Part shown: in pieces, positions 5,338 to 62,872 of the stretch
Numbering within the stretch: the stretch's first letter is position 1
Layout: each line of letters begins with the position of its first letter
Assembly: GCA_964606745.1 (NCBI GenBank)
Contig: CAZSHJ010000002.1
Coordinates: forward strand, 2,629 to 66,628
Length of the DNA: 64,000 nt
Reading direction: 5' to 3'
From: an uncultured Thermoplasmatales archaeon
GTDB lineage: Archaea; Thermoplasmatota; E2; UBA202; DSCA01
Program-made: the position numbers and the translations under genes
Notes under the pieces: generated by a model
Databases searched by the model: none
What the model saw: the letters and a program-made list of their open reading frames with translations, nothing else
Told to the model about the DNA's origin: nothing

Positions 5338-8300
5338 ATGCGAGGAAAGAAAGTAGGCATACTTCTTTTGATTGTGGCAAGTTTGGTGATCGCATCTTTT
5401 GTTATTGCAGAGATGAAAAATGGTTTGGATATAAAAGAGGTGAGAGCAGAGCCAAATGGAGGGAACATATTGTATGTTGGTGGAACGGGGCTAGACAACT
5501 ATACAACCATTCAAGCAGCAATAGATGATGCAAATCCAGGAGATACTGTTTTTGTTTATAATGGAACGTATTACGAAAATGTGGTTGTAGATAAATCCAT
5601 TAATCTCATTGGTGAGAACAAAAATACTACTATTATCGATGGAAATGGAACGGGAAATGTTGTGAATATTAGTGCTGACTGGGTAAATATAAGTGGTTTT
5701 TCAATAAGAAATAGTGGCAGCAACTTAAGGATTTTCGGGATATTCGCCAGTGGTTATAACAATATTATCATTTTCTCTTGCATCATCTCAAATAATGACA
5801 TTGGTGTTGTCCTCAGTGGTTACAATAACACTGTTTTCTCTTGCATCATCTCAAATAATGACATTGGTGTTGTTGTCCTCAGTGGTTACAATAACACTGT
5901 TTTCTCTTGCGTTATCTCAAATAATGGTTTTGGTGTTTTCCTCAGTGGTTACAATAACACTGTTTTCTCTTGCATCATCTCAAATAATGGTTTTGTTGGA
6001 ATCAGGCTTGATTCTTCCAGTAATATCACCATTTCTAATAATACTTTTACAAATGATGGTATCACAATCGCTGGTTCTTTATCTCATTTCATTCATAGGA
6101 TTGAGAACAATACAGTAAATGGTAAATCCTTACTCTATTACAAAAATGAAAATAATGTTGTTTTGGATGGGGCTGGGACAGGACAACTAATACTGGTAAA
6201 TTGCAGCAATTTTGAAATAAAAAATATAAACATAAGCGATACACATATTGGAATAGAAGTTGCCTATTCCAGCAATATCACCGTTTCCAACTGCAACCTT
6301 TCAAACAATTATGAGGGCATCAGGCTTGAGTATTCCAGCAACACTACTATCTCCTCCTGCAACATCTCAAACAATTACGATGGCATACAGGTATATTGTT
6401 CAACCAACAATACCATTGCTGACTGTACCATTTCGAGCAACTTTAACGGTATCGGTATCGAGCTTAAGTATTCCAGCAACAACACCATTTCCTCTTGCAC
6501 CATCTCTTCAAACATTTATATCACTTATATCGGCATCCTGCTTTTTGAATCAAGCAACAACAACTTGATTTACCATAACAACTTCATTAACAACGTCAAT
6601 CAAGCATATGATGATGGTGATAACACCTGGGACAACGGTTATCCCTCAGGTGGCAATTACTGGTCTGATTTTGATGAGCCAAGCGAGGGAGCATGGGATA
6701 ATAACAGCGACGGGATTGCAGATTCACCATATTATATACCTAGTGGGAGCAATCAAGATAGATATCCACTTATAAATCCATGGAACATGACAATAAATCA
6801 GCGTCCAACCGTGAACATCGCATTTCCCTTTAATGGTTCAACAGTAAACGGAACTATCATAGTTAATGGAACAGCAAATGATACCGACAACACCATCCAG
6901 AAAGTAGAGATAAAAATAGATAACGGCTCATGGATGATAGCCAATGGAACAACATCATGGAACTATTCATGGGATACGACTACGGTCAGCAATGGAAATC
7001 ATACAATCTATGCTCGCAGCTATGATGGAGAAGACTATTCAACCATCGTGCAAGTAAATGTAACGGTGAATAATATTATACTGCCTCCGCCAAGCATTGT
7101 TTATGTCGATGATGATTTTAATGAATCTACTCCAGGGTGGCAATATGACCACTTTGATAAAATTCAGGATGGGATTGATGCAGTAGCTGATAGCACGGTA
7201 TATGTTTTCAATGGAATATATTATGAAAATGTAGTTGTGAACAAATCAATTAATCTGATTGGAGAGAACAGAAATACTACTATTATTGACGGCAGTGGCA
7301 TGGGGGATGTTGTTTATGTTTCTGCTGATTGGGTGAATATTAGTAATTTTACTATACAAGGTAGTGGAAATAGCTATCCTTTTGATATTGGGGCTGGAAT
7401 GAATATTTGTTCAAACAATAACACCATCTTTTGTAACATCTTCTCTAACAACGGTAATGGCTTAGTACTCAGTTACTCAAACAACAACTCTATAACTTCA
7501 AACCATATCTATAATAATTCTCGGGGTGTCTTACTCAGTTACTCAAACAATAATTCTATTACGGACAACTCTTTTTTAAATGACGGACTTTCTACTACGG
7601 ATTCATATCAAAATACCGTTATCAACAACACGGTTAACGGCAAACCCCTCGTGTATTTGGAAGATGAATCAGATATGGTTGTAGATAATGCAGGGCAGGT
7701 GATACTTGTCAACTGTGACAACATTACTGTCCAAAATTTAGAATTATCTAACACTACTGTTGGTATTGAATTGCAGGACTCCAACAACTGTTTTATATTT
7801 GGTAATCTCATTTCTAATAACAGGTTGGGTATGGTGTTTGATTCTTCTAGCAATAATGTAATTTCTGACTGCAATATTTTAAATAATTCTTTTTCTGAAG
7901 GCCTTGGAGTGGGCATCTCTCTCGATACTTCAGATTATAACACAATTTCAAATTGCAACATCTCACACAATGGGATAGGTATCGCATTGCTACATTCATA
8001 CCTCAATACAATTTATAACTCTGCTATTTCAAACAACTATGCTGGTTTTATCCTATTCGGAACGGGTGACAATACCGTATTCTTCAATAATTTCATTGGC
8101 AATAGATATATTACTTTTCTAAATCCTTCTACTGGGATTATATGGGGTTCTTATCGTTCATATACATACAATGGAACAAATTATACTAATCATCTTGGTA
8201 ATTATTATGATGACTATAGTGGCAATGACACAGATGGAGATGGAATAGGAGATATATCATATAAGATAGATGAACATAGCTATGATCATCATCCTTTAGC

Positions 8301-11300
8301 GATGCCTAAACAAAATTACATCATCTTGCCACCTCCGCAACCTCCAACTGTAAATATAACATATCCTTATAACGGAATGACACTAAACGGTACTGTTATT
8401 ATTACTGGAATAGCTGATGATATCGATGGAATTGTTCAGAAGGTTGAGATAAGTACTGATTTTTTTCAGTGGATAACAGCCGTAGGGACTATTTTATGGA
8501 ATTATACTTGGAATACAACCACAGTAAGCAATGGTTTCCATGTAATATCTGCTCGTAGCTATGACGGAATAGAATACTCAGATATAGCAGCAGTGATGGT
8601 AACGGTGAATAACACCTATGCTTCACTCTCTGTTGTATATGTCGATGATGATTTTAACGAATCTACTCCCAGTTGGGATTACGACCATTTCGACAACATT
8701 CAGGATGGAATTGATGTTGTTGCCGAAAATGGAACTGTATATGTTTACAATGGAACATATTATGAAAATGTTGTTGTGAATAAAACCATAAATCTCATTG
8801 GGGAAGATAGGAATAGCACAATTATAGATGGAAATGGAACAGAAAATGTTGTGAATATTAGTGCTGACTGGGTAAATATAAGTGGTTTTTCAATCAGGAA
8901 TGGTAATTGGTGTGGTATCTATACCCGTTATTCTAACAACACCACTTTAATCGGGAACATTATTAAAGATAATATAGGCAGTGGTACTCTTTCGCTTTTC
9001 TCTAACAACATTACGATATCTCATAACAGCATTTTATTAAATGGTGGAAGTGGCATAGAATTATGGAATCCAAATTTTGCCAATATATCAAACAATATTA
9101 TATCAAAAAATATACTAGATGGCATTAATGTGTCTTCATCAAGTAGCAGCACTTTTACTAGCAATTTAATTAGCAACAATACCATGTTTGGTATACGAAT
9201 GTACGACTCTTCTACAGACAATAATACTATATCTAATAACATTATCTGCAATAATGGTTACGGCATCGAACTCGCATATTCAAACAACAACACAATTTCA
9301 AACTGTAACGTTTCTAATTCCACTATAGGCATCTGGCTTAAGCAAGCGAATAATAATACGATTACTAATATTACATCATATAACAACTGGGGAGATGGAA
9401 TTCGGCTTGTGGAATCATCTTTCAATCATATAGACAGTTGTTTCGTTTTTGGAAGTCAATGGAACGGGCTGGGATTTAACTATTCCTGTAATCATAATGT
9501 GATAAAGAATTGTACTATCGCCAATAACTGGGATGGCATTCGCATTTGCACGTCGTCCCATAACAGTATCTCCATGTGCACTTTAATAAACGAAAACAAC
9601 AATATCATATTGGATATGTCAGATTATACCGATATAGAAAAATGTGAAATAAAGGAAGGACAATCTGGCATCAAACTTGTTTATTCATCAAGCTACAACA
9701 CAATTTCTAACTGCAACATTTCAAACAATGATGAGGGCATCGATCTTGATTCCTCACCCAACAACGAAATCCACTATAACAATATTTATGGAAACAGTGA
9801 ATATGGTATTAGAAATTGGAACAGCGAGTTGCAATACGTGGTAAATGCCGCCTACAATTATTGGGATTTCCTGTCTGGTCCTTATCATCCAACGTTGAAT
9901 CCTACCGGAACGGGCGATAATGTAAGCGACAACGTTGATTTTATTCCTTGGCTTACTGCACCAGTAATAGGCGGAATGGAAGGAACTTTAACTGAGGGAG
10001 AAAATGAAGTCGATGCAATTGATGAGGCAGATACAATTATAGAAATAAATGCTACGGCAAACAACAGTATGAGAATTATTTCTTACGAAGAAGCACCTGT
10101 TGAAGAGCCAGAAGTTGTTAAATCAATAGGAAAATATATTGAGATAGAAGTAGAAAATGAAACTGCTGTTGAATGGCCAATATTCATTCAAATTTATTAC
10201 ACGCAGGAAGATTTAGATAATACCGGAATAACAGAAAATCAAATTATTGGAATTTATTTTTACAATGAAAGCAGTGGCGAATGGGAACTTTACAACGATG
10301 CGGGAGTCAACACAACCGATATCATGGTTAGTAGAAAACAATATGCTGGCTATGTATGGGCAAATGCATGGCATCTCACCAATATGACCATAGGTGCTGA
10401 TAATAACCCTCCAGAAATAAGCAATGTTGATGCAAATCCAGAAAGCCAAGAAATAAATGGATATGTGAATATATCTTGTGTTGTTACAGATAATATTGAA
10501 ACATCAGAAGTTTTTGTTAACATAACATATCCTGATTCAACTTACCACAATCTTTCAATGGTAAATATCGCAGGAAGTGATATCCATTATTACAATGCGT
10601 CTTATTCATCAGAAGGAAATTATGAATACTTCATTTGGGCAAGTGATACAAGTGCAAATGCAAATGTCTCATCAAAGAAATCGTTTTCTGTATTTATTCC
10701 GCAATACACATTAAATATTTTAGTTTCTCCAGAAAGTGCAGGAACTGTTACCCTTAGTCCATCCGGTGGAACATACGATGAAGGAACTGTAGTTACCGTA
10801 ACTGCTCATGCTAATACAGACTATGAATTTAATCATTGGTCTGGAGATGTTTCCAGTAGCAATCCAACAGTGCAAATCACGATGGACAGCGATAAAAGTA
10901 TAACTGTTAATTTCACTGAGAACCCTCCTCATCAGTACACATTAACAGCATCTGTTGACCCATCCGGAAGTGGAAGCATTACATTGAATCCTCTTGGTGG
11001 AACGTATGATGAGGGAACCACCGTTACTGCAACAGCCAATCCAAATACTGGCTATGAATTTGATCATTGGTCAGGAGATGCAAGTGGAATAACAAGCAGC
11101 ATACAAATTACAATGGATAGTGATAAAAGCATAACTGCCCATTTCTCAGTCATACAATACACTCTTACAACATCTATCACTCCATCTGGAAGCGGGTATG
11201 TTACTTTGAATCCAACTGGTGGAACATATGATGAAGGAACTGTTGTGACTGTTACTGCTCATGCAAACTCTGGGTATGAGTTCGACCATTGGTCAGGAGA

Positions 11301-12072
11301 TGCAAGTGGAACAAATCCAAGCATACAAATCACAATGAACTCTGGCAAAACAATAACTGCACATTTTGTAGAGACAACTCCCCCAAATCAACTTCCAACT
11401 GTTGCAATAACTTCTCCAGCCAATGGTGCAACCGTGAGCGGAACTGTGAATATTCAGGGCACGGCTGGTGATGCTGATGGGGCTGTCCAAGACGTGCAAG
11501 TAAAGGTTGATTCAGACTCATGGATTTCAGTGTTTATAGTTGATTCTGGTTCAGGGGGTTATGATTCATGGGGTTATTGGTGGAATACTACCGCTGTTGC
11601 AAATGGAAGCCATACAATTTATGCTCGTAGCTATGACGGAACGGATTATTCAAGCATTGATTCTGTGACGGTGAATGTGAACAACATTCCGCCGAATCAT
11701 AAGCCCACAGTGGATATAATCTTTCCATTGGATGGAACAGAAGTGAAGAAAACATTTACTATCCACGGAACTGCAAACGATGAAGATGGAGATGAAATTC
11801 AGGTGGAGATAAAAATTGGTGATGGAAACTGGACTATTGTTAATGGAACAACAATGTGGAATTATTCATGGGATACAACTGGCTTTGATAATGGAGATTA
11901 TGTTATACAGACAAAGGCATATGATGGGCATGAATATTCAAACATTGACTCAATAATGGTTAAAGTGAATAATAAAAAAGGTGGCGGTGGCATTCCGGGC
12001 TTCGAACTAATTTTGCTTGTGGGGGCAATTGTTGCCGTGCTTTTGATGGGAAGGAGAAAACCCAATCTTTAG
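5338..12072 (+). CDS. Giant (2244 aa) cell-surface protein: right-handed beta-helix (NosD/CASH-like) modules, Ig-like domains, three InlB-B-type repeats, C-terminal PGF-CTERM archaeosortase signal
   Basis: Signal peptide. Many xSNNxxGI beta-helix rungs. A ~520-aa supermodule (VYVDDDFNESTP...YYENVVVNKSINLIGENRNTTIIDG...ADWVNIS cap + helix + QRPTVNI...ARSYDG...VNN Ig-like domain) occurs three times. Three B-repeat-like units (YTLNILVSPESAGTVTLSPSGGTYDEGTVVTVTAHANTDYEFNHWSGD). C-terminus GIPGFELILLVGAIVAVLLMGRRKPNL is a PGF-CTERM. Strong RBS ggaggcaaaaatATG. Confidence 0.85.
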   Translation: MRGKKVGILLLIVASLVIASFVIAEMKNGLDIKEVRAEPNGGNILYVGGTGLDNYTTIQAAIDDANPGDTVFVYNGTYYENVVVDKSINLIGENKNTTIIDGNGTGNVVNISADWVNISGFSIRNSGSNLRIFGIFASGYNNIIIFSCIISNNDIGVVLSGYNNTVFSCIISNNDIGVVVLSGYNNTVFSCVISNNGFGVFLSGYNNTVFSCIISNNGFVGIRLDSSSNITISNNTFTNDGITIAGSLSHFIHRIENNTVNGKSLLYYKNENNVVLDGAGTGQLILVNCSNFEIKNINISDTHIGIEVAYSSNITVSNCNLSNNYEGIRLEYSSNTTISSCNISNNYDGIQVYCSTNNTIADCTISSNFNGIGIELKYSSNNTISSCTISSNIYITYIGILLFESSNNNLIYHNNFINNVNQAYDDGDNTWDNGYPSGGNYWSDFDEPSEGAWDNNSDGIADSPYYIPSGSNQDRYPLINPWNMTINQRPTVNIAFPFNGSTVNGTIIVNGTANDTDNTIQKVEIKIDNGSWMIANGTTSWNYSWDTTTVSNGNHTIYARSYDGEDYSTIVQVNVTVNNIILPPPSIVYVDDDFNESTPGWQYDHFDKIQDGIDAVADSTVYVFNGIYYENVVVNKSINLIGENRNTTIIDGSGMGDVVYVSADWVNISNFTIQGSGNSYPFDIGAGMNICSNNNTIFCNIFSNNGNGLVLSYSNNNSITSNHIYNNSRGVLLSYSNNNSITDNSFLNDGLSTTDSYQNTVINNTVNGKPLVYLEDESDMVVDNAGQVILVNCDNITVQNLELSNTTVGIELQDSNNCFIFGNLISNNRLGMVFDSSSNNVISDCNILNNSFSEGLGVGISLDTSDYNTISNCNISHNGIGIALLHSYLNTIYNSAISNNYAGFILFGTGDNTVFFNNFIGNRYITFLNPSTGIIWGSYRSYTYNGTNYTNHLGNYYDDYSGNDTDGDGIGDISYKIDEHSYDHHPLAMPKQNYIILPPPQPPTVNITYPYNGMTLNGTVIITGIADDIDGIVQKVEISTDFFQWITAVGTILWNYTWNTTTVSNGFHVISARSYDGIEYSDIAAVMVTVNNTYASLSVVYVDDDFNESTPSWDYDHFDNIQDGIDVVAENGTVYVYNGTYYENVVVNKTINLIGEDRNSTIIDGNGTENVVNISADWVNISGFSIRNGNWCGIYTRYSNNTTLIGNIIKDNIGSGTLSLFSNNITISHNSILLNGGSGIELWNPNFANISNNIISKNILDGINVSSSSSSTFTSNLISNNTMFGIRMYDSSTDNNTISNNIICNNGYGIELAYSNNNTISNCNVSNSTIGIWLKQANNNTITNITSYNNWGDGIRLVESSFNHIDSCFVFGSQWNGLGFNYSCNHNVIKNCTIANNWDGIRICTSSHNSISMCTLINENNNIILDMSDYTDIEKCEIKEGQSGIKLVYSSSYNTISNCNISNNDEGIDLDSSPNNEIHYNNIYGNSEYGIRNWNSELQYVVNAAYNYWDFLSGPYHPTLNPTGTGDNVSDNVDFIPWLTAPVIGGMEGTLTEGENEVDAIDEADTIIEINATANNSMRIISYEEAPVEEPEVVKSIGKYIEIEVENETAVEWPIFIQIYYTQEDLDNTGITENQIIGIYFYNESSGEWELYNDAGVNTTDIMVSRKQYAGYVWANAWHLTNMTIGADNNPPEISNVDANPESQEINGYVNISCVVTDNIETSEVFVNITYPDSTYHNLSMVNIAGSDIHYYNASYSSEGNYEYFIWASDTSANANVSSKKSFSVFIPQYTLNILVSPESAGTVTLSPSGGTYDEGTVVTVTAHANTDYEFNHWSGDVSSSNPTVQITMDSDKSITVNFTENPPHQYTLTASVDPSGSGSITLNPLGGTYDEGTTVTATANPNTGYEFDHWSGDASGITSSIQITMDSDKSITAHFSVIQYTLTTSITPSGSGYVTLNPTGGTYDEGTVVTVTAHANSGYEFDHWSGDASGTNPSIQITMNSGKTITAHFVETTPPNQLPTVAITSPANGATVSGTVNIQGTAGDADGAVQDVQVKVDSDSWISVFIVDSGSGGYDSWGYWWNTTAVANGSHTIYARSYDGTDYSSIDSVTVNVNNIPPNHKPTVDIIFPLDGTEVKKTFTIHGTANDEDGDEIQVEIKIGDGNWTIVNGTTMWNYSWDTTGFDNGDYVIQTKAYDGHEYSNIDSIMVKVNNKKGGGGIPGFELILLVGAIVAVLLMGRRKPNL
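5748..6010 (+). repeat. Four near-identical tandem 63-69 nt repeats (one beta-helix rung, ~22 aa each) inside the giant surface-protein gene
   Basis: Direct reading: cagtggttacaataacactgttttctcttgcatcatctcaaataatgacattggtgttg... reiterated. Units encode SGYNNTVFSCIISNNDIGVVL variants with 3-nt indels. Confidence 0.8.
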
Positions 12073-21858: not shown

Positions 21859-22983
21859 TCAGATAACAAAAACATCCACCATATCCTTCGATATTTTTCC
21901 TTTATCACTGTAAGCATACACCTCCGCTGTATGGAATCCTGGAGATGTATGCATGTCCCAGGAGAAAGGTGCTTCGTTATCCACATGCTGCTTTTCACCA
22001 TCAACATAAAACTCTGTTCTCTCTGTATTTGTTGCATTTACTCTTATGGTTGTATGTCCGAAAACCCTTGGTATGCCAACCTCAAATACCACCCTGCCGA
22101 ATATTGTTGGCATTTCCCTTCCCATAATGTAGGCATGATAGCGCCTCGGTTCCTCGATGTATACTTTTGGCACATCGGGCATGAAGTTTCCGTATGGGCC
22201 GTCCATATAGAGCACTCCTGTACCGCCGTAGCAGTGGGGTATGAGCATATCTGCATCGTATGCCATTCGGAACCAGCCGTTCTCGCCCCAGTTCGTGCCC
22301 CAGCTGTTTTTCACCAGCCAGCATTGCTGTTCATCATCATAACCGAATAGGGCGACAAGATGGCCGCCTGTCAGCCTGCCCCATCTGTGCTTGTATATGC
22401 CGCCGTGATAATGCATGAAATCCTCCCAGATAAATATACATATGACCAGTGGCCCATGTTCAATCAAAGCCCTTTTTATGCTGTCCATATCGTTTTCAAC
22501 GTATCCCCACTCCGTTATCTTGACGGTTCTGTTCTGCCAATCCGGCAGTGTCATGTTGCACGGTGCATCGGTCTTTCTCTGGGGGTCCGGGAAGCATCCC
22601 TCATCCGGAACGCCGTGTTCTACCAAATAGTCGGATGCATGACTGGTGTTCACGCCCCATGCACATGTGCCGCCCGAGCAGAAGAACAGATGTGCCTCTG
22701 ACAGATCACATCCGAAGTTATATCCGACCTTGTAATGAACCATGGTTTCCAGTGCTGAGCATAGAGCATACGCTTCGCAGCTCGGGCATGGCTCCTGATT
22801 TTTTACGGGCGTGGTAAAATCAGTGCCGTTTATATCCCGCCAGCTAAATTTTTCCGGTAGTGGAGAGGGGGCATCCGTGCTTTCTTGCTCTATTGTTTCC
22901 CTTCCGAAGAAATTATTTCCCAGCCCAGCCGAGGGTAGAAGTAGAGTCAGAACGATTGCAATAGACACAAAGGATTTTTTCAT
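21859..22983 (-). CDS. Secreted papain-family (C1A) cysteine protease with C-terminal extension
   Basis: Signal peptide. QEPCPSCEAYA (catalytic Cys region), GGHLVALFGYD (His) and VKNSWGTNWGENGWFRM (Asn) align with the papain QGxCGSCWAF / GHAV / NSWGxxWGExGY signatures. Confidence 0.85.
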   Translation of the reverse strand: MKKSFVSIAIVLTLLLPSAGLGNNFFGRETIEQESTDAPSPLPEKFSWRDINGTDFTTPVKNQEPCPSCEAYALCSALETMVHYKVGYNFGCDLSEAHLFFCSGGTCAWGVNTSHASDYLVEHGVPDEGCFPDPQRKTDAPCNMTLPDWQNRTVKITEWGYVENDMDSIKRALIEHGPLVICIFIWEDFMHYHGGIYKHRWGRLTGGHLVALFGYDDEQQCWLVKNSWGTNWGENGWFRMAYDADMLIPHCYGGTGVLYMDGPYGNFMPDVPKVYIEEPRRYHAYIMGREMPTIFGRVVFEVGIPRVFGHTTIRVNATNTERTEFYVDGEKQHVDNEAPFSWDMHTSPGFHTAEVYAYSDKGKISKDMVDVFVI

Positions 22984-23187
22984 ATATCGTGAATGTCTGC
23001 TGGATTTTAATATTTATCTCAGCATTTAAAAAAGCCGTAGCGTGTTGTATGATGATGTATGGGCTTATTGACGAAAATTGGCTTGTATCTACCGCTTTGC
23101 CTTTGTTTTGCGGGGGATGTATTGGGGCTTTTAGACGGCTTTTTATTCCTCTCTTTTCCTGTTCCCTTCAGCTTTTCTGCTCGATCT

Positions 23188-23703
23188 TCACTCAGATTCC
23201 GCAGGCGGCGGAGTGAAAGTTCTTGCCGCCAGCTCTTTATCAAGCATGAAAAGTCCGTTCCCTTCCTTTCCTGCAAGCTCTAGTTTTGCTATGATTTCGT
23301 TGTCATTTCCTTCTTCCTCTATCTGCTCTGTTACAAACCAGTGAAGGAATATCTGGGTTGCATGGTCATTTTCTTTTATCGCAAGATCCATCAGATCGTT
23401 TATTGATTTAGTAATAAACTGCTCGTGTTCCAGAGTTTTTTGAAACATATCCATGGTATCCTTGAATTCGGAGGGTGGTTTCTCAATGGCCTTTAGTTTC
23501 ACCTTTCCACCCTGGTCGTTGATGTAGCGGTAAATTCTCATGGCATGGTCCATCTCCTCATAATACTGCACCATGAACCAGTTGGCAAACCCGGGAAGAC
23601 CAATATTCGTGCTGTGTGCCGACATGGACATATATAGATATGCGGAATACATCTCCTTATTGATTTGCTCGTTCAGTGCATCTTCCATTTTTTTATTCAA
23701 CAT
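23188..23703 (-). CDS. ftn: Ferritin-like protein (non-haem ferritin)
   Basis: 171 aa. Four-helix-bundle di-iron ligand pattern (E...YEEMDHA...E..H). Confidence 0.85.
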   Translation of the reverse strand: MLNKKMEDALNEQINKEMYSAYLYMSMSAHSTNIGLPGFANWFMVQYYEEMDHAMRIYRYINDQGGKVKLKAIEKPPSEFKDTMDMFQKTLEHEQFITKSINDLMDLAIKENDHATQIFLHWFVTEQIEEEGNDNEIIAKLELAGKEGNGLFMLDKELAARTFTPPPAESE

Positions 23704-23712
23704 CTATTCGCC

Positions 23713-24363
23713 TCATAACTTTTTGTGGCACAGCCACCAGTCGTAGCACTCTATTTCGCCCTTTTCCTTTGCTTCTTCCCTTTCTTTTATCTGCTCGGTT
23801 GTCCCTGCTGGCGGAATTATAACCCTGTCTGCTATGAGCTCGTTGTTGGGCCACTTGTGGGGCAGTGCAACTTTATTCTCGTCGCTTATCTGCAGTGCTT
23901 TGAGCGCTCTAAGTATCTCGTCCCAGTCCCTTCCTACTTCAGCCGGATAGTAAACTATTGCCCTGATTGTGCCTTTGCTGTCTACTATGAACACTGCCCT
24001 GGCTGTGTTGCTCGCTCCGGAGGGTATCATGCCCAGTGCATCTGCCAGATTACCTCTGTCATCTGCAATTATCGGAAACTCGATTTCCACGCCAAGATTG
24101 TCCTTTATCCACTCCGCCCATTTCAGATGTGCAAATACTTGGTCAATGCTCAGTCCTATGACTTCGGCACCCAGCTCCCTGAACTTCTCGAGCCTGATTT
24201 GCATACCGTAGAACTCCGTTGTGCATACTGGCGTGAAATCGCCGGGATGGCTGAACAGAACGAACCACTTGCCTTTGAAGGCATCTGGCAATTTCATGTG
24301 TCCGTGCGTTGTGTTTACTTCCACTTCCGGGAATTTTTCTCCTATTACTACCATTTTTTTCAC
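23713..24363 (-). CDS. Peroxiredoxin (AhpC/TSA family, Prx6-like)
   Basis: 216 aa with the FTPVCTTE peroxidatic Cys motif. Confidence 0.9.
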
Positions 24364-24367
24364 CTCT

Positions 24368-24772
24368 TTATATTTTTATATCTTTGGAATTAATCCAGAG
24401 ACCATGAACATTGCAATACTCTCTTGCCTCTATTTTATCTGCTTTTATCTCAAACTCTGCTTCTGGCTTGTCGCCGGGTTTCAGGACTTTTCTGTATGCC
24501 TTGCCATCGGCAATCACCTGAATCCATTCTATGTAATGCTTTTCTTCCATCGGGTGGTTCTGATTCTGCCCTACTTTCACAACTACTCCATTCTCTGTTT
24601 TCTCAATATAGGGCACATGTTTTTCAGTTGAAGCATCTTCACTTTTTCCTTCCATTAGTTTCATTGGCTGTCCGCAGCATACAAGTTCCCCCATTCCGCT
24701 GTGCAGCACTTCCACAATATTTCCACATATTTCACATTTATATATCTCCCTTATTTTTGTCATATTTCTCAC
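24368..24772 (-). CDS. dfx: Desulfoferrodoxin (2Fe superoxide reductase)
   Basis: N-terminal desulforedoxin Cys motifs (CEICGN ... CCGQP) plus SOR domain ([23 protein letters not shown]). Confidence 0.9.
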
Positions 24773-24794
24773 CTCTTATTTTATATTTCACCTC

Positions 24795-25370
24795 TCAATA
24801 ATTTTCAACCCAGAGTTCGTAATAACTCTGAGGGTGCCTGCAGGCAGGGCATGCCTCCGGTGCTTCCTCGCCCTCATGAACATATCCACAGTTGCAGCAC
24901 TTCCATTTTACCACCTTATCTTTTTTGAACACGCTTTTATTTCTCACATTATCCAGGAGTTTGCGGTATCTACGTTCATGGTATGCTTCAACTTTGGCAA
25001 TCTCTATGAAACTCCGGGCAATCTCTGGGAAACCTTCTTTCTCTGCCACGTCGGCAAATTCTGGGTAAAGCTTGCCCCATTCCATTTTTTCGCCTTCTGC
25101 CGCAGCCAGCAGATTTCCTTCGGTACTTCCTATAACTCCTGCAGGATACGACGCCTTTATTTCCACATCTCCTCCCTCCAAATATTTGAAGAATATCTCG
25201 GCGTGCTCCTTCTCGTTGTCAGCCGTCTCCGAGAATATTGCCGATATCTGTTCATAGCCTTCTTTCTTTGCCTTGGATGCAAAGTACGTGTATCGCATCC
25301 TTGCCTGCGACTCCCCCGCAAAAGACGCGAGGAGATTTTTTTCCGTTTCAGTTCCTTTTAAATTTTTCAT
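24795..25370 (-). CDS. rbr: Rubrerythrin
   Basis: Di-iron ferritin-like domain followed by rubredoxin-like CCNCGY...CPACRHP. Confidence 0.9.
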   Translation of the reverse strand: MKNLKGTETEKNLLASFAGESQARMRYTYFASKAKKEGYEQISAIFSETADNEKEHAEIFFKYLEGGDVEIKASYPAGVIGSTEGNLLAAAEGEKMEWGKLYPEFADVAEKEGFPEIARSFIEIAKVEAYHERRYRKLLDNVRNKSVFKKDKVVKWKCCNCGYVHEGEEAPEACPACRHPQSYYELWVENY

Positions 25371-25382
25371 TTTTTCATCTCC

Positions 25383-26555
25383 TTAAATATTTTTATGCTT
25401 TTCATATATTTTATCTGCCAGTTTATCCAGCGTTTTAAAATCATCCTGCTTTGGATGGCCCTTTATTACAACAGGCTCAATAATCTCCACCTTCAGATTT
25501 TTTACCATTTCCTTGAGCTGTTCAACCATTTTTCCTCCCCAGCTATATGAGCCGATTATCGAGACAAATTTGGTTTTTGGTCTCAAAGCGTTTGCCAGAT
25601 ATGCTGCGTATATGGCAGAGGGATGCGCCCCGGACAGCACCGTGGGCGAGGCGATAACAATGGTGGCTGCATCAACAAGTGCCATAGCCAGCTCGCCTAT
25701 GTCTACAACTGTTAAATTAAATGGTTTTACTTCTATGCCTTTTTTCATGAGTGCATCTATGAAATAATTAACCATGGCGGCAGTACTCCCGTGCATGGAA
25801 ACATATGGCAGAACAACCTCGTTTTTCGCTTCATCGGAAATCCATTCCCTGTATGCATTTATTATGAATTCGGGATTGTCATAGACAGGACCGTGGCTCG
25901 GGGCAATTAATTCAATGTCCAGCTCTTCTATTCTGCCCAGATTTTTTCTTATTGCTGTACGGAACGGCATCATTATCTCTGCATAATATCTCTTTGCTGC
26001 CTCGTAGACTTTTCTTTCATCTTCAACAAAAAGTTTGCTTGTGGCAAGATGTGAACCTAGGAAATCGCATGTGAACAGAATTTTATCCTCTTTCAGATAT
26101 GTGAGCATTGTTTCCGGCCAGTGAACCCACGGGGCATGGATGAATTCAAGGGTTTTATTTCCCAGAGACAAGATATCACCGTCATTTACTTCCATAAACC
26201 TTTCTTCAGGCACATGGAGCAGATCAACGAGCATTATCTTGCATTTCGGCGTGCAGACAACCTTTGCATCGGGATATTGTTTAAGTACCTCCGGGATTGA
26301 ACCGGAATGATCCTGCTCCGCATGATGGGCAATGATGTAATCCACTTCTTCCCCCGCTTCTTCTAGGTTGTCCATCAACTCATTTGCTTTGCTCGTGTCC
26401 ACGGTGTCCATCAGTGCTGTCTTCTCACTCCCTTTTATAAGATAGGAGTTGTAACTGGTGCCGTCGGGAAGCGGAATGAGTTCGTCAAAAAGTTTCCTAT
26501 CCCAGTCTATTACTCCTGCCGAATATATGTCCGGTTTGATTTTCCTTACATTCAT
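25383..26555 (-). CDS. fprA: Flavodiiron protein (FprA-type O2/NO reductase)
   Basis: Metallo-beta-lactamase-like di-iron domain (HHAEQDHSG) fused to a flavodoxin-like domain. Confidence 0.9.
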   Translation of the reverse strand: MNVRKIKPDIYSAGVIDWDRKLFDELIPLPDGTSYNSYLIKGSEKTALMDTVDTSKANELMDNLEEAGEEVDYIIAHHAEQDHSGSIPEVLKQYPDAKVVCTPKCKIMLVDLLHVPEERFMEVNDGDILSLGNKTLEFIHAPWVHWPETMLTYLKEDKILFTCDFLGSHLATSKLFVEDERKVYEAAKRYYAEIMMPFRTAIRKNLGRIEELDIELIAPSHGPVYDNPEFIINAYREWISDEAKNEVVLPYVSMHGSTAAMVNYFIDALMKKGIEVKPFNLTVVDIGELAMALVDAATIVIASPTVLSGAHPSAIYAAYLANALRPKTKFVSIIGSYSWGGKMVEQLKEMVKNLKVEIIEPVVIKGHPKQDDFKTLDKLADKIYEKHKNI

Positions 26556-26556
26556 T

Positions 26557-27024
26557 CTATACCAACACTATATCATCAGCTTCAGATTTTAAAGAATTTT
26601 CATTCATGGATTCTTTCTCGAGGCAATCTTTACATAATCCCTTGAAGTATCCGTGCATCTCATCAATTCTATGCCCCATGTCCATAATCTTCCCGGGATA
26701 GAGGCGGTCAACGTCCATATCAATTATCACACCGCATTTCTTGCACATAAAATGGTGGTGCGCCGTTGTCTTGAAATCGTATCTTAGTTCATGTCCCGAT
26801 ATGGTCAGTACTTGTATAACATTATGTCTGTTCAGTGTTTTCAGGGTATTGTAGATAGTTGTTTTTGAAAGTGACGGATTATTCTTTTTCAAATCGGAGT
26901 ATATTTTCTCGGCACTCGGGTGTATTCTGTTTTCATCAAGATACTTCAATACATACATTCTCTGTGGCGTTACCTTCATGTTATTGCTCTTCAGGATGTC
27001 TCTATATTTCTCGTAGTTTTCCAA
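26557..27024 (-). CDS. perR: Fur-family metalloregulator (PerR-like)
   Basis: 155 aa. Winged helix plus HHHFMCKKCG ... CKDC metal-site pattern. Heads an operon of peroxide/O2 detox genes. Confidence 0.85.
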   Translation of the reverse strand: MENYEKYRDILKSNNMKVTPQRMYVLKYLDENRIHPSAEKIYSDLKKNNPSLSKTTIYNTLKTLNRHNVIQVLTISGHELRYDFKTTAHHHFMCKKCGVIIDMDVDRLYPGKIMDMGHRIDEMHGYFKGLCKDCLEKESMNENSLKSEADDIVLV

Positions 27025-27057
27025 ATTCTCACCTTATTGATTGTAGTTGATTTTATT

Positions 27058-27072
27058 TTGTAATTATTACAA
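27058..27072 (-). promoter_or_regulatory. Perfect 7-1-7 palindrome TTGTAATtATTACAA (candidate PerR/Fur box) upstream of perR
   Basis: Read directly. 34-48 nt upstream of the perR start codon. 13/15 match to the Bacillus PerR-box consensus TTATAATnATTATAA. Confidence 0.55.
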
Positions 27073-27160
27073 TTTGAGATAGAATACAAATGAGATATTT
27101 AAGCTTTTGCCCATCATAGGAAAAAATTTTAATTGTTTGGCCGTTAAGAAGTGATTCTTG

Positions 27161-27946
27161 ATGGAAAAGAAGAATTTGGGTTATGTACTGGCATTGGACG
27201 AGGGGACATCCAGTGCCAAAGCTTTTGTAATTGACCATTCGGGCTTGATTGCAGGAAAGGGACAGTGTCCATTCAATCAATATTTTCCAAAACCGGGATG
27301 GGTTGAACATAGCCCCGAAGAGATATGAGATGCACAGATAAAAGCCATCAAGCAATCCCTGCATGATGCCGCCGTCAATACAAAGCAAATTGCATCCGTT
27401 GGGATTGCCAACCAGAGGGAAACTGCAATATTATGGGACATGAAATCGAATCAATCTGTCCACAATGCAATCGTATGGCAGGACAGAAGAACATCTGAAA
27501 TAATTGATGCTTTATCAGAAGATGAACGGGCATTGATAAAGGGGAAGACCGGTCTTGTTGCCGATTCCTATTTTTCCGCATCAAAGATAAAATGGATGCT
27601 CGACATCATTCCGGGATTGAGGAGAAGGGCGGAGCAGGGGGAACAGGCTGCTTTGGGCGCCTATATTTATATAGAGAACAACGGGGCATTGCCTTTTGAA
27701 TGGAAGCCGGTGAAAAAGGGCAGAAATATTCGGCTGTTGATTCCACATTACATAAGCGGAGAGAATGACGTGAAGGTTTATGCCAGGGTGAGAAAACCGC
27801 TGCGAAACGTGACTATAAAATTTCCTGAGATTGCAAGGAAAGACAGCAGGAAGGCGGTGATGCCCGGAGAGATGATAATGACCCGATTGAGAAAACAGGA
27901 ACTCAACCGGGTTAAAGGGAAGGTTACTATGGAGGCCATAGTATGA
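27161..27946 (+). pseudogene. Decayed glycerol-locus remnant: N-terminal ~165 codons of glycerol kinase fused in-frame to the C-terminal ~80 codons of the G3P-dehydrogenase-associated FAD oxidoreductase; internal TGA
   Basis: [28 protein letters not shown]...[16 protein letters not shown] is GlpK-like. It hits TGA (27326-27328) exactly where the conserved Trp (EIW) is expected. Glycerol-kinase similarity ends at KIKWMLDIIPGLRRRAEQGEQAALG. The tail GRNIRLLIPHYI...VYARVRKPLRNVTIKF...AVMPGEMIMTRL parallels the C-terminus of the 62847..63929 protein (GKNVRYVVPQFL...FYFRVKEESEDVNIVI...VVKPPEMVKVVM). Confidence 0.7.
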
Positions 27947-27980
27947 AAATGAACAAGAAAAAAAAGAAATAACCTGTATC

Positions 27981-28322
27981 ATGTGCCCGCTCGGATGCAA
28001 AATCACGGTAACTACAAGAGGTAATGTTATTCTTGATATCAGTGGAAATGCATGTCGCACCGGTGAGGGATATGCGCGGCAGGAGATATTATCGCCTTCC
28101 AGAATCATCATGAGTGTCGTGAGGTGCAGGAGGTGCGATATGCCGACCGTTTCGGTAAAAACGGAAAAGCCAGTCCCGAAAGACCGTATGGAAGATATCA
28201 TGAGAAGTTTGAGGGATATCGAGGTTGAAGCCCCCGTGAATGCAGGCGACGTTATTGTCGAGAATGTGCTGGGCCTTGGGATTAATATTATTGCAACCAG
28301 AAGTGTAAGAAAGAAGAAGTGA
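27981..28322 (+). CDS. DUF1667-type small Cys-rich protein (paralogue of 62498..62872)
   Basis: CPLGC...NACRTGEGYARQE and C-terminal GDVIVENVLGLGINIIATRSVRKK parallel CPLGC...NRCARGKKYVIQE...GDVIAANTGGTGVAIIASRDMVKK in the intact glp cluster. Confidence 0.7.
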   Translation: MCPLGCKITVTTRGNVILDISGNACRTGEGYARQEILSPSRIIMSVVRCRRCDMPTVSVKTEKPVPKDRMEDIMRSLRDIEVEAPVNAGDVIVENVLGLGINIIATRSVRKKK

Positions 28323-28324
28323 TA

Positions 28325-29090
28325 TTATGCGTGTGCCTTTATCCAGTCGACTATCGTTTTGTGAATTTCATCGGCCCATTCTGGGTCTTCGAATATTTCG
28401 TGATATGCCCCCCTAAATTCCCTCAGCGTTTTATCTTCGATCTTTAACTCCTGCATGAATTCACGTGCTCCCTTTATCGGTGCCAGTACATCTGCCGTTC
28501 CATTCAAAATCAGCACGGGTACGGTGATATTTTCAGCTTCTAAATGGGTCTTCTTCATGTGGACAAAAAGGCTTCTTGCAAGTGCGATAGAAATGCGGTC
28601 ATGCACCAGCGGATCATTGATGTAATTTTCAACGGTTTCTTTATTTCTTGAAAGTGTTTCCGGTTTTATTGTGTTGTTAATCGTCGCAGATGGCATGATT
28701 GCACCTAAAAATTTGGCAAGTCCGACGAAATCTTGAGGTATTATCGCCGTGGGCGAGAGCAGGTGCTGAGGCTATCATTCCCTTAATTCTACTGGGGTAA
28801 AGTTCGGCATATCTGATGGCTGTGACCCCCCCGAGGCTGTGCCCAAGAATAAATGGTTTTTTGTTAATCTCATCTATTATTTCGTTTATTATGCCAAGGG
28901 CATCCTCAACTCTTGCATGCCCCCTCTTTCCATCGCTTTTTCCGTGTCCCGGCCAATCGAAGGTATAGACGGCAAAACCTTCGTCGTTGAGCATTTTGAT
29001 GAGCCCCTCATATCTTCCGCAGTGCTCTCCAAGCCCGTGCACGGTTATGACCCAATCCTTGCCCTTCCCGAATTTTGTTTTGTATATCAT
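28325..29090 (-). pseudogene. Alpha/beta hydrolase (lysophospholipase/monoglyceride-lipase-like) split by a frameshift
   Basis: ORFs 28677..29090 (HGLGEHCGRY...GHSLGG...SAPAL) and 28325..28696 (C-terminal Asp/His region) are two halves of one ~255-aa hydrolase in different frames. Could also be a sequencing error. Confidence 0.6.
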
Positions 29091-29209: not shown

Positions 29210-29905
29210 ATGTTAATCATGCTCGTTTTCATTCACGGGATGTTATCCAATGCTAGCGTATGGGACCCCGTCATCACTTATTTTAATGAGAGGGGCTTTT
29301 CATGCAATGCGGTAAATTTAAAAGAAGGATTGGATTTGAGGAAAACACGTTTTCAGGATTACGTGGATAAAGTAAAGGCAGTGGTAACAGAAGATGATAT
29401 AGTAATCGGGCATTCAATGGGCGGCTTGGTCGTCCAGAAGGTGGCGGAGGAAGCCGATATAAAGGGCGGCGTTGGCATATGCCCTGCAGCACCAAAGGGA
29501 GTCAAGTTTCGTGGTGATATTGTGCTATCCTCTGCCAAGTATGCACTAAAAGTTATCATGGGAAAACCGTTTAAAGAAGATTATCCGTATGTTAAAAAAT
29601 ATATGTTAGTCGGGGTAGGAGAAGAAGAGGCGAGAGCCATCTACAAAAAATTGGAAAAACAATCGGCAATTGTTACGCATGAACTGGGGATGAACAAGAT
29701 AGCGGTAGATGAAAATAAAGTGAATTGTCCCCTCCTCTTCATTGCAACAAAGAATGATAAGGTATGTGCCCCCGAACTGGTTAAGAGAATTGCAGAAAAA
29801 TACAATGCAGAATACAGGTTATATAACGGTTGCCATCATTTTTTTTGTAATGACAATTGGCAAGACATAGCAGAGGAAATCCACAAATTTATAACAAAAT
29901 TATAG
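29210..29905 (+). CDS. Alpha/beta-fold hydrolase
   Basis: 231 aa. VFIHGM oxyanion region and GHSMGG nucleophile elbow. Confidence 0.75.
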   Translation: MLIMLVFIHGMLSNASVWDPVITYFNERGFSCNAVNLKEGLDLRKTRFQDYVDKVKAVVTEDDIVIGHSMGGLVVQKVAEEADIKGGVGICPAAPKGVKFRGDIVLSSAKYALKVIMGKPFKEDYPYVKKYMLVGVGEEEARAIYKKLEKQSAIVTHELGMNKIAVDENKVNCPLLFIATKNDKVCAPELVKRIAEKYNAEYRLYNGCHHFFCNDNWQDIAEEIHKFITKL

Positions 29906-30139
29906 GGAATGCCCTTCCATTCTGTTGCAATAATCCGGGCATATTACCCCGCATATCATGTAAAATAATAACCGGCAATTAGCTAAACGAAATCACCTGC
30001 AAAGCACCATTTTAAGGCAAAAATGCATTGCTACTTATTAATACAATTAATCTAATAAAAAATAAAAAATAAAAATGTAAAAGGTAAATGAGACGGTGCA
30101 AAGTTGATTTGTTCTGAAATTATTCTTTCTTTATACCTT

Positions 30140-30331
30140 TTATTCTATTACTTCAACATTTACTGCTTTTGGTCCCCTGTCTTCTTCCTTGACATCAAAT
30201 TTTACTTTTTGTCCAACCATCAATGGTTTATCTCCCTTAACTTCAGACTGGTGGACAAAAATATCTTTTGCCGTTCCTTCTGCTCCAATAAAGCCGTAAG
30301 ATGTCATCCATCTTTTAACTGTTCCTTCCAT
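30140..30331 (-). CDS. csp: Cold-shock domain protein (CspA family)
   Basis: 63 aa. MEGTVKRWMTSYGFIGAEGTAKDIFVHQSEV...GQKVKFDV..GPKAVNV aligns with CspA RNP1/RNP2 motifs. Confidence 0.85.
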   Translation of the reverse strand: MEGTVKRWMTSYGFIGAEGTAKDIFVHQSEVKGDKPLMVGQKVKFDVKEEDRGPKAVNVEVIE

Positions 30332-30513: not shown

Positions 30514-30792
30514 GTGATATATATGGCAAGGGAAGTAACGGAATTTCTGAATCTGCCTGCGTATACCCGCGACGGGATTTATGTGGGTGATGTAAGAAAT
30601 GTGGCTTTGAATACGGAAGAGAGAAGAGTAGACAGTTTGATAATCACGAATACTAACTCTGAGTTGGTGGAAAATTCTGCGGACATTGGTGTGCCATACA
30701 GGTGGGTGTCGGCAGCCGGGGACATAATAATATTGAGTTATTTCCCCGAGAAAGTATCCGTTGAAGGGGAGGAAGAGGCGGAGGAGGAATAG
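30514..30792 (+). CDS. PRC-barrel domain protein with acidic tail
   Basis: EVTEFLNLPAYTRDGIYVGDVRNVALNTEERRVDSLII fits the archaeal PRC-barrel pattern. Probable start at 30523. Confidence 0.6.
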   Translation: MIYMAREVTEFLNLPAYTRDGIYVGDVRNVALNTEERRVDSLIITNTNSELVENSADIGVPYRWVSAAGDIIILSYFPEKVSVEGEEEAEEE

Positions 30793-62501: not shown

Positions 62502-62872
62502 TTTTTCACCATATCGCGCGAAGCGATGATTGCCACGCCCGTACCGCCCGTATTTGCAGCAATTACATCACCACACTTCACGGGTGTCTTAGCTTTTATT
62601 TTGGAAAGTTCCCTAACACACCTACCCATTGCATCCCTCGGAATTTTTCCGTCGCTCCTGACAGGCAGCAGGGAATGAATTCCGTTTTCAACAAATACCG
62701 TTGTCGTGAGCGTCCTTCTGGGATCGGTCATCTCCTGAATGACGTATTTCTTTCCTCTGGCACACCTGTTTCCCGTAACTGTTATTTCATCTCCCTTTTT
62801 CTCAGCCGTTATCGCACAGCCGAGCGGACATTCTATACATGTGAATTCATTTCTCATATTTGCCCTCCACAT
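62498..62872 (-). CDS. DUF1667-type small Cys-rich protein of the archaeal glycerol-3-phosphate dehydrogenase cluster
   Basis: CIECPLGC...NRCARGKKY. 4-nt overlap with glpK. Paralogue of 27981..28322. Confidence 0.75.
   Translation of the reverse strand: MWRANMRNEFTCIECPLGCAITAEKKGDEITVTGNRCARGKKYVIQEMTDPRRTLTTTVFVENGIHSLLPVRSDGKIPRDAMGRCVRELSKIKAKTPVKCGDVIAANTGGTGVAIIASRDMVKK

Follow-up and report, generated by a model that had tools for sequence, protein, structure and literature searches.

The following features lie side by side at the locus under study, which occupies part of a window, that is the whole stretch of 64,000 nucleotides that was analysed. The evidence base throughout consists of metagenome assemblies.

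27025–27157 (no strand): conserved divergent promoter/operator region between a Fur/PerR-family regulator gene (26557–27024, minus strand) and glpK'
27158–27643 (plus): glpK pseudogene (glpK'), N-terminal 162 codons, start TTG 27158 or ATG 27161; Pfam FGGY_N
27326–27328 (plus): nonsense TGA at the Trp of the EIW motif, a single TGG>TGA transition; contigs L019 and L005 of relatives have TGG
27629–27643 (plus): deletion junction, the 15-nt stretch GCGGAGCAGGGGGAA (AEQGE) belonging to both parent genes; the tblastn match to GlpK ends at 27643 and that to NOX starts at 27629
27629–27946 (plus): C-terminal ~100 codons of a NOX-type (Pyr_redox_2) gene, in frame with glpK'; stop TGA 27944–27946
27943–27972 (plus): ancestral start of a DUF1667 (MOX) gene, ATG 27943, overlapping the upstream stop as ATGA; GGAGG 5' of the ATG, as in relatives
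27963–28322 (plus): DUF1667 ('MOX') body, open frame; first usable ATG 27981, ORF 27981–28322
28325–29090 (minus): convergent alpha/beta hydrolase gene (Hydrolase_4, monoacylglycerol-lipase-like), split into ORFs of 137 and 123 aa

Translation of positions 27158–27946 on the plus strand gave a single reading frame that is interrupted by one in-frame stop only. Residues 9–159 of the fusion matched positions 1–151 out of the 245 positions of Pfam FGGY_N (PF00370, E 3.4e-41), so that glpK' covers roughly the first 60% of this domain, the remainder of FGGY_N and the whole of FGGY_C being deleted; a Pfam search of the fusion returned no match to FGGY_C (PF02782). The fragment was 47% identical to residues 1–160 of E. 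coli GlpK in a tblastn alignment that stops at nucleotide 27643, and it was 70.5% identical to the full-length orthologue of 494 aa in L019. The likeness to archaeal and bacterial GlpKs of the FGGY family extends over residues 1–162 at 52–56% identity and includes the motifs DEGT, GWVEH, NQRET and WQDRRT. Unlike a working GlpK, the fragment has the first half of domain I only, no domain II (FGGY_C) and a stop at a conserved Trp. A tblastn search of the 64-kb window with E. coli GlpK revealed no further GlpK fragment that could represent the missing C-terminal part, and a split gene or an insertion was rejected on this account.

Where the L019 orthologue reads through 494 aa, the frame of glpK' meets a stop at codon 57 and an uninterrupted frame of ~500 codons is not found. 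The codon is the TGA at 27326–27328, and the Trp at this site is kept in 7 out of 7 other GlpKs aligned. Since no stop is used more often in the window than TGA, which ends 22 of the 44 long ORFs, the codon was taken to be a true nonsense codon and recoding was rejected. The sequence-only reading, in which TGA had replaced the conserved Trp of EIW and served as an ordinary stop elsewhere, was thereby upheld. The same TGA was observed in two contigs from a second sample, L001 (JGI 3300031358) and L002 (Logan SRR8556772).

The second half of the fusion was 61.5% identical to residues 324–427 of the NOX encoded on L021 (E 5e-40) and 57% identical to that on L020. The tail had been recognised previously as the end of an oxidoreductase, which is correct, at a length of ~80 codons, which falls short of the ~100 codons found. 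Neither Pyr_redox_2 nor any other Pfam domain matched in this tail, the FAD/NAD-binding body having been deleted. In a codon-level comparison with glpK of L019 and NOX of L020 and L021, the junction stretch corresponded to '..RAE(K/Q)GE' in GlpK as well as to '..AAEQGEQAA' in NOX. The deletion is estimated at ~3.48 kb and is in-frame; it took out glpK beyond its first third, the entire glpTk gene and NOX up to codon ~325 (~75% of that gene). A DAO-family glycerol-3-phosphate (G3P) dehydrogenase gene of the glpTk/glpA type is absent between 27158 and 28322 and present in L021 (498 aa).

Three-frame translation downstream of the junction showed that ATG 27943 opens a frame of no more than 9 codons (MKMNKKKKK*), closed early by a 1-nt frameshift within a run of eight A residues (A8) at 27958–27965. 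Relatives read M..(E/K)ITCIMCPLGC in a single frame without the A-run. The 'EITC' part of the N-terminal CxxCxxxC...C motif falls in the -1 frame, in which ATG 27981 is the first start codon, and initiation there results in loss of the first Cys of the motif. The body is otherwise still open, matching PF07892 over profile positions 3–82 of 82 (E 3.6e-31) with 66–70% identity to the Thermoplasmata orthologues P0125, P0126, P0127 and P0129, and a DUF1667 product of 113 aa (P0121) is on record at NCBI, JGI and Logan.

Both flanks of the cluster were analysed as well. Intact orthologues of the convergent hydrolase, of 255 and 256 aa, gave two tblastn HSPs in different frames (29090–28728 and 28726–28328) on account of a 2-nt deletion at ~28727, which parts the GHSLGG nucleophile from the C-terminal portion expected to hold the His and acid residues. 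The Logan contig L004 was identical over this lesion. On the other side, a TATA-like ATATTTAAG box and a perfect palindrome of the 7-1-7 form, TTGTAATTATTACAA (27058–27072), occur in the region between the regulator gene and glpK', and this block was nearly invariant when the window was aligned at the DNA level with L005, L006 and L007. As this region looks intact, the relic may still be transcribed from the putative Fur-side promoter.

The native gene order was established from contigs of relatives, in which a Fur gene is divergent from glpK, followed by a glpTk-type G3P dehydrogenase gene, NOX, DUF1667 and a convergent alpha/beta hydrolase gene. L019 carries Fur divergent from the full-length glpK with TGG at the Trp site. 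L021 reads the C-terminus of glpK, a DAO/Fer2_BFD protein of 498 aa, a Pyr_redox_2 protein of 427 aa, DUF1667 of 123 aa and a hydrolase of 255 aa. L020 reads NOX, DUF1667, a hydrolase of 256 aa, a PRC gene and a 318-aa gene, the last two of which are matched in the right flank of the window at 30514 and 30855. An intact orthologous operon is thus found at the syntenic position across these three contigs. A first search of genome contigs with the fusion protein returned no relative. A contig search with the Fur alignment led to the closest MAGs, represented by L006 and L007, whose contigs end at the Fur-glpK boundary and are silent on glpK. In L005, glpK breaks off at the very codon where it does in the window and continues into the interior of a DUF114-type protease gene. 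An ancient truncation common to both, or a hot spot of recombination, was considered and rejected as unreliable. This contig is 1.4 kb long with 2.6x coverage, departs from the otherwise near-identical glpK of L019 from residue ~128 and is probably chimeric.

The operon of L021, taken as ancestral, shares with the GlpTk-NOX-MOX G3P dehydrogenase complex, a system known from 2019 work and outlined in PMC11962113 and bioRxiv 10.1101/2024.02.29.582781, a three-gene module beside glpK. The module encodes a G3P dehydrogenase of the DAO family that carries Fer2_BFD, an 'NADH oxidase' of the Pyr_redox_2 type and a DUF1667/molybdopterin-oxidoreductase-Fe4S4-like small subunit, the Thermoplasmata versions being sequence-based assignments. 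Compared with this system, the relic has no G3P dehydrogenase gene, has lost ~75% of NOX, retains 162 codons of glpK with a stop and has a frameshifted DUF1667 start. A further cluster at 60942–64000 and beyond, on the same contig, proved to be an intact glpTk-NOX-DUF1667-glpK cluster on the full contig (GlpTk 585 aa) and is of the same kind. Its oxidoreductase had been described as an intact ORF starting at 63929; that ORF runs off the end of the window and encodes a NOX of 415 aa on the full contig. The relic was 25–38% identical to this cluster as compared to 58–76% to orthologues in other genomes. Judged by these identities, the cluster is an old paralogue and not the relic's parent.

We interpret the locus as the wrecked remnant of a second operon for glycerol catabolism, recently inactivated, in an uncultured Thermoplasmata archaeon from sediment, a reading to which we assign a probability of roughly 0.86. 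Four disabling lesions are found in the cluster, namely the ~3.48-kb deletion, the TGA nonsense codon, the 1-nt frameshift in DUF1667 and the 2-nt deletion in the hydrolase gene. A decayed and non-functional glycerol locus, with a GlpK N-terminus fused to an oxidoreductase C-terminus and followed by DUF1667, had been proposed from the letters, and translation, Pfam matches and orthologue alignments bear this out. As relatives show, the ancestral operon consisted of a Fur/PerR-family regulator gene divergent from glpK (494 aa), glpTk (498 aa), NOX (427 aa) and MOX (123 aa), followed by the hydrolase gene (255 aa). Given that glpK, oxidoreductase and DUF1667 follow in this order natively in relatives, a single internal deletion explains the fusion. 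This deletion crossed over inside the 15-nt quasi-repeat encoding AE(K/Q)GE in both glpK and NOX, presumably via microhomology-mediated recombination or replication slippage, and left an in-frame chimera of GlpK (1–162) and the C-terminal ~100 residues of NOX. The chimeric ORF is in-frame because the quasi-repeat has the same codon register in both of these otherwise unrelated genes. The TGG>TGA transition cuts the chimera at codon 57, a 1-nt change in the A8 run throws the DUF1667 start out of frame and a 2-nt deletion splits the hydrolase. The locus would consequently make neither glycerol kinase nor G3P dehydrogenase any longer, and its loss was plausibly tolerated because the paralogous cluster at 60942–64000 is intact.

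The timing of decay was evaluated with amino-acid relative-rate counts instead of dN/dS, since ~70% amino-acid identity implies saturation of the synonymous sites. Tajima counts for glpK' were 11–16 against 6–9 and those for the NOX tail 16 against 7–11, the excess being small and not individually significant in either case. No acceleration was observed for DUF1667 (about 9 against 8) or the hydrolase (26 against 20; 26 against 35). Where 7 other GlpKs are invariant, glpK' had five unique changes (W57*, I73V, T84A, G98N and P100S) as compared to 0–3 per other sequence, and T84A, G98N and P100S set it apart from other GlpKs at otherwise invariant residues. Selective constraint may thus be relaxed in the fused gene only. 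The little extra divergence in these tests argues for recent decay and the conserved synteny for vertical descent. The relic had been thought to be old or laterally acquired, for which neither the synteny nor the rates, unaccelerated in DUF1667 and hydrolase and mildly raised in the fused gene, speak. Paralogy with the cluster at 60942–64000 is old, and decay is young.

As a pseudogene cluster the relic is ordinary and fairly young. It resembles bacterial and archaeal pseudogenes formed by microhomology deletions in having several independent lesions, an intact orthologue in relatives and an intact paralogue in the genome. Set against ordinary reductive gene loss, nothing is unusual except the codon-aligned quasi-repeat that gave an in-frame chimera, and in this respect the relic is a clean case of two unrelated genes joined in frame by a deletion between microhomologies in codon register. 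It documents the ongoing loss of a redundant glycerol/glycerolipid module made up of a lipase-like hydrolase, glycerol kinase and the GlpTk-NOX-MOX dehydrogenase. For metabolic reconstruction of the MAG one glycerol pathway should be counted, not two, and the chimeric 168-aa ORF (P0001) along with fragments of 55 and 113 aa, all listed as genes in public protein sets, constitute an annotation trap. Beyond such bookkeeping the importance of the relic is small.

The junction might instead have been created in silico, in that an assembler leap over the AEQGE-coding stretch made a chimeric join in a genome whose glpK-glpTk-NOX is in fact intact. The junction does lie exactly on sequence common to both genes, and contigs were seen to break or to be suspect nearby: L001 and L002 both end at window position 27620, 9 nt before the junction, the related MAG contigs L006 and L007 likewise break at the Fur-glpK boundary and the low-coverage L005 seems to be a chimera within glpK as well. 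The second sample is thus silent on the junction, and the ending at 27620 might be due to a gap in coverage or to a variant in the population. Exact-protein look-ups with the 113-aa DUF1667 product and the 168-aa chimera recovered no independent contig across the junction, and the Fur query gave a short contig only. With only 15 nt, and imperfect in relatives, the common stretch falls below the k-mer lengths of assemblers. The ORF across the junction, P0001 (168 aa, from ATG 27440, reported as 'FGGY_N'), has entries in NCBI, JGI and Logan, the last based on a different assembler, with the proviso that these records may stem from the same one or two samples. Among 5.8 billion proteins there was no intact allele of this species' glpK. 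The three other lesions are independent of the join and show the operon to be dead anyway, two of them being reproduced at the contig level in the second sample (the TGA in L001 and L002, the hydrolase frameshift in L004). An assembly artefact is accordingly considered very unlikely.

Partial function of the locus, whether by readthrough or recoding of the TGA, by the 168-aa chimera acting as a new protein or by rescue of DUF1667 through -1 ribosomal or transcriptional slippage in the service of the paralogous GlpTk-NOX, is very unlikely. The conserved and seemingly intact promoter/operator region, the in-frame deletion and the DUF1667 body, an ORF without internal stop or rate acceleration, are all compatible with it, and the A8 run holds a dnaX-type heptamer, A_AAA_AAG, so placed that a -1 shift would lead into the DUF1667 frame. 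Unaccelerated rates are equally explained by recent inactivation, however, and no other stop is as common in this organism as TGA. The chimera has kept only half of FGGY_N, none of FGGY_C and nothing of the flavin/NAD-binding body of NOX. Programmed -1 frameshifting of the dnaX type was rejected, as neither the heptamer nor the A-run and frameshift at the DUF1667 start are present in relatives and no stimulatory RNA structure was found 3' of A_AAA_AAG, the sequence there folding no better than shuffles (z +0.62). Residual function of the DUF1667 gene may be entertained from its clean ORF. A remnant that is not fully dead, being transcribed from a Fur/PerR-controlled promoter and making DUF1667 (MOX) for the paralogous GlpTk-NOX by -1 slippage at A_AAA_AAG/A8 or by re-initiation at ATG 27981, or one in which the A-tract forms an on/off switch, is more doubtful again.

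The reading least able to account for the data is the one first proposed for the locus, a tandem-duplication junction of the 60942–64000 cluster followed by internal deletion and long divergence and decay; it would give the order glpK, oxidoreductase, DUF1667 and has both clusters on one contig, 33 kb apart, yet these lie on opposite strands, both flanks of the relic are syntenic with genomes of relatives in which the order glpK-glpTk-NOX-DUF1667 is native and intact, and it is hardly credible. Pairwise alignment with the intact cluster did recover the GlpK half (31% identity to GlpK at 60942–62501, minus strand, E 1e-28) and DUF1667 (37–38% to the copy at 62498–62872), the oxidoreductase tail giving a weak match to the C-terminal end of the oxidoreductase in that cluster (23–25%, E 3e-4). 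The same three parts were 70%, 66–70% and 61% identical, respectively, to the syntenic orthologues.

The locus around 27158-27946 is an ordinary, recently inactivated and vertically inherited paralogous glpK-glpTk-NOX-MOX operon that bears a neat in-frame deletion. Translation of 27158-27946 gave a single frame with one internal stop, followed by a DUF1667 gene and a convergent hydrolase.

Features of the decayed locus and its right flank
27158-27946, forward: fused frame of the glpK N-terminus (glpK') and the tail of a Pyr_redox_2 oxidoreductase (NOX)
27326-27328, forward: internal TGA
27981-28322, forward: DUF1667 ORF (PF07892, E 3.6e-31)
29090-28328, reverse: hydrolase, split into ORFs of 137 and 123 aa
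30514: PRC-barrel gene
30855: 318-aa gene

Residues 9-159 of the fused frame match positions 1-151 of 245 in the Pfam domain FGGY_N (E 3.4e-41). The match to E. coli GlpK (residues 1-160, 47% identity) stops at nucleotide 27643, and identity to the intact 519-aa GlpK of the window is 31% (E 1e-28); the latter differs from both by an insertion of ~25 residues at about residues 113-150. The last ~100 residues are only weakly similar to the C-terminus of the Pyr_redox_2 oxidoreductase encoded in the window's other cluster (23% identity, E 3e-4). The sequence-only reading of a glpK N-terminus, an oxidoreductase C-terminus and a DUF1667 gene was accordingly right apart from two details: the C-terminal part is present but spans ~100 codons and not ~80, and the oxidoreductase called intact in the other cluster extends past the window end. 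A search of the whole window found no further GlpK fragment.

The TGA takes the place of the Trp in an EIW motif, a residue conserved as W in each of the seven further GlpKs aligned; the orthologue has TGG, so that one TGG>TGA transition accounts for the change. TGA terminates 22 of the 44 non-overlapping window ORFs of at least 150 codons, TAA 17 and TAG 5. TGA is the main stop of the organism and the codon in glpK' is therefore a nonsense mutation, which bears out the earlier view of a decayed second glycerol locus with a genuine stop. The same TGA was observed in contigs L001 (JGI 3300031358) and L002 (Logan SRR8556772), which show no more than one mismatch to the window over 22634/24664-27620 and whose gene calls include a 55-aa FGGY_N fragment. 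Since the window was assembled from another sample (JGI 3300031651, contig Ga0315543_1000224, 71,489 nt), a one-off assembly error is ruled out for the TGA.

The organism is a member of the Thermoplasmata. Its nearest genome loci come from 'Thermoplasmata archaeon AUK021' and an uncultured Thermoplasmatales MAG (Fur 75-76% identity, FprA ~85%). Assemblies break repeatedly in or near glpK: L001 and L002 at 27620, and the two closest MAG contigs, L006 (positions 1-150) and L007 (1-92), at the Fur-glpK boundary, L006 five codons into glpK. Intact orthologous loci were found on three contigs. On L019 (JGI Ga0136651), retrieved by a clade-specific degenerate DNA pattern, glpK is full-length (494 aa), has TGG at the Trp position and is divergent from the same Fur-family gene. 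L020, from the same sample, carries NOX (incomplete at the contig end), DUF1667 (123 aa), a convergent alpha/beta hydrolase (256 aa), a PRC-barrel gene and a 318-aa gene, the last two being common to the right flank of the window. The single Logan contig L021 (SRR15988954) holds the glpK C-terminus, a DAO/Fer2_BFD dehydrogenase (498 aa), Pyr_redox_2 (427 aa), DUF1667 (123 aa) and the convergent hydrolase (255 aa). Identity to these orthologues was 70.5% for glpK', 58-61.5% for the NOX tail (E 5e-40), 66-70% for DUF1667 and 70-76% for the hydrolase. The native order is therefore glpK-glpTk-NOX-DUF1667. One internal deletion would suffice to make the relic from it, and the tandem-duplication junction proposed earlier is wrong. 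The ancestral module represents a G3P dehydrogenase of the GlpTk-NOX-MOX type, known from Thermococcus kodakarensis and its relatives (PMC11962113; bioRxiv 10.1101/2024.02.29.582781).

The GlpK match stops at 27643 and the NOX match starts at 27629, leaving a 15-nt overlap (GCG GAG CAG GGG GAA, AEQGE) common to both parent genes. The corresponding sites, with the break marked by a slash, read AGA GCG GAA AAG GGA GAA / ATA in L019 glpK, GCG GAG CAG GGC GAG / CAG GCG in L021 NOX and GCT GAG CAG GGG GAG / CAG GCT in L020 NOX. The crossover fell within this quasi-repeat, whose codons line up in the two genes, and this accounts for the in-frame fusion; the deletion was probably microhomology-mediated. 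Judged by the lengths of the genes on L019 and L021, it removed about 3.48 kb: glpK from codon ~158 to the end, the entire glpTk and the first ~328 codons of NOX.

The junction and lesions were read from assembled contigs, and an assembler error at the shared stretch was considered. L001 and L002 both stop 9 nt short of the junction, so that the second sample does not confirm it; their common end, reached by two assemblers from one set of reads, is consistent with a gap in coverage, though it may be a population variant. An imperfect repeat of 15 nt is too short for an assembler to be misled by it, and the operon is dead regardless of the junction on account of three other lesions. A 168-aa protein from the junction-spanning ORF (P0001) is recorded from NCBI, JGI and Logan; the Logan record must come from a contig other than L002, which does not reach the junction. 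The low-coverage ENA contig L005 (2.6x), with glpK cut at the same codon, was set aside as probably chimeric. At L005:1010-1403 glpK codon ~162 runs into the interior of a gene for a DUF114/SDH-type Clp-fold protease, with a terminal GCTGAAGCTTTA tandem repeat, and the contig departs from the near-identical L019 from GlpK residue ~128 onward. Its break at the same GE codon is an odd coincidence.

In relatives DUF1667 starts at an ATG overlapping the NOX stop (ATGA), 3' of GGAGG, and reads M..(E/K)ITCIMCPLGC in a single frame. Both signals are kept in the window (ATG 27943), where this frame encodes MKMNKKKKK before a stop at 27970-27972; EITCIMCPLGC follows in the -1 frame, past an A8 run (27958-27965). 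The first usable start is ATG 27981, with loss of the first Cys of CxxCxxxC..C. An A_AAA_AAG heptamer within the run has the right register for -1 slippage, which was rejected since no A-run was found at this start in relatives and the RNA 3' of the heptamer folds no better than shuffles (z +0.62). We read the site as a plain homopolymer frameshift.

Intact orthologues match the hydrolase in two HSPs (29090-28728 and 28726-28328). A single nucleotide stands in place of codon 122, indicating a 2-nt deletion, and the second sample has the same sequence at this site (Logan contig L004). About 1.4 kb (29210-30331) is extra relative to L020, where the PRC gene directly follows the hydrolase; it holds a second, intact 231-aa alpha/beta hydrolase (29210-29905, forward) and a cold-shock-domain (CSD) gene (30140-30331, reverse). 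JGI contig L003 matches from 28820 with a 14-nt register shift at about 30085, and L004 stops at 30083. The intergenic stretch that precedes the CSD gene would thus contain a small repeat or be polymorphic for an indel.

Changes unique to the window or to a sister sequence were counted with an outgroup. The counts were 11-16 versus 6-9 for glpK', 16 versus 7 and 16 versus 11 for the NOX tail, about 9 versus 8 for DUF1667 and 26 versus 20 and 26 versus 35 for the hydrolase. Five changes (W57*, I73V, T84A, G98N, P100S) are unique to the window at GlpK positions that do not vary among the seven other sequences, against 0-3 in each of those. This is a mild sign of relaxed constraint in the fused gene; the relative-rate counts gave no such sign in DUF1667 and the hydrolase. 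On these counts the lesions appear young relative to the ~70% divergence between lineages, and recent lateral acquisition is disfavoured because synteny is conserved on both flanks. The earlier suggestion that the relic is old or lateral is wrong. Its low identity to the other cluster, including 37% between the DUF1667 copies (27981-28322 and 62498-62872), is due to ancient paralogy.

The other cluster is cut by the window at 64000, and its order was taken from the full contig L022, also Logan L023.

Genes of the other cluster, in order
GlcD-like FAD oxidase, 482 aa
Fer4_8/CCG protein, 408 aa
GlpTk-like DAO/Fer2_BFD dehydrogenase with an extra BON domain, 585 aa
NOX, 415 aa
DUF1667, 119 aa
60942-62501, reverse: GlpK, 519 aa

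The first three (L022:306-4706) make up an unusual arrangement for a G3P dehydrogenase module. The cluster is complete; presumably the organism can do without the decayed operon for this reason.

The spacer between the Fur-family gene and glpK' contains a perfect 7-1-7 palindrome at 27058-27072, TTGTAATTATTACAA, which looks like a Fur/PerR box. This divergent promoter region (27025-27157) is nearly invariant in L005, L006 and L007, which suggests a predicted Fur/PerR-type operator common to the glycerol operon and an oxidative-stress cluster downstream of the regulator.

Oxidative-stress cluster (22600-27024, reverse)
25383-26555, reverse: flavodiiron protein FprA
24795-25370, reverse: rubrerythrin
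after rubrerythrin, reverse: desulfoferrodoxin, peroxiredoxin and ferritin (Pfam calls on L001)

A very large ORF of 2244 aa was also observed at 5338-12072 on the forward strand.
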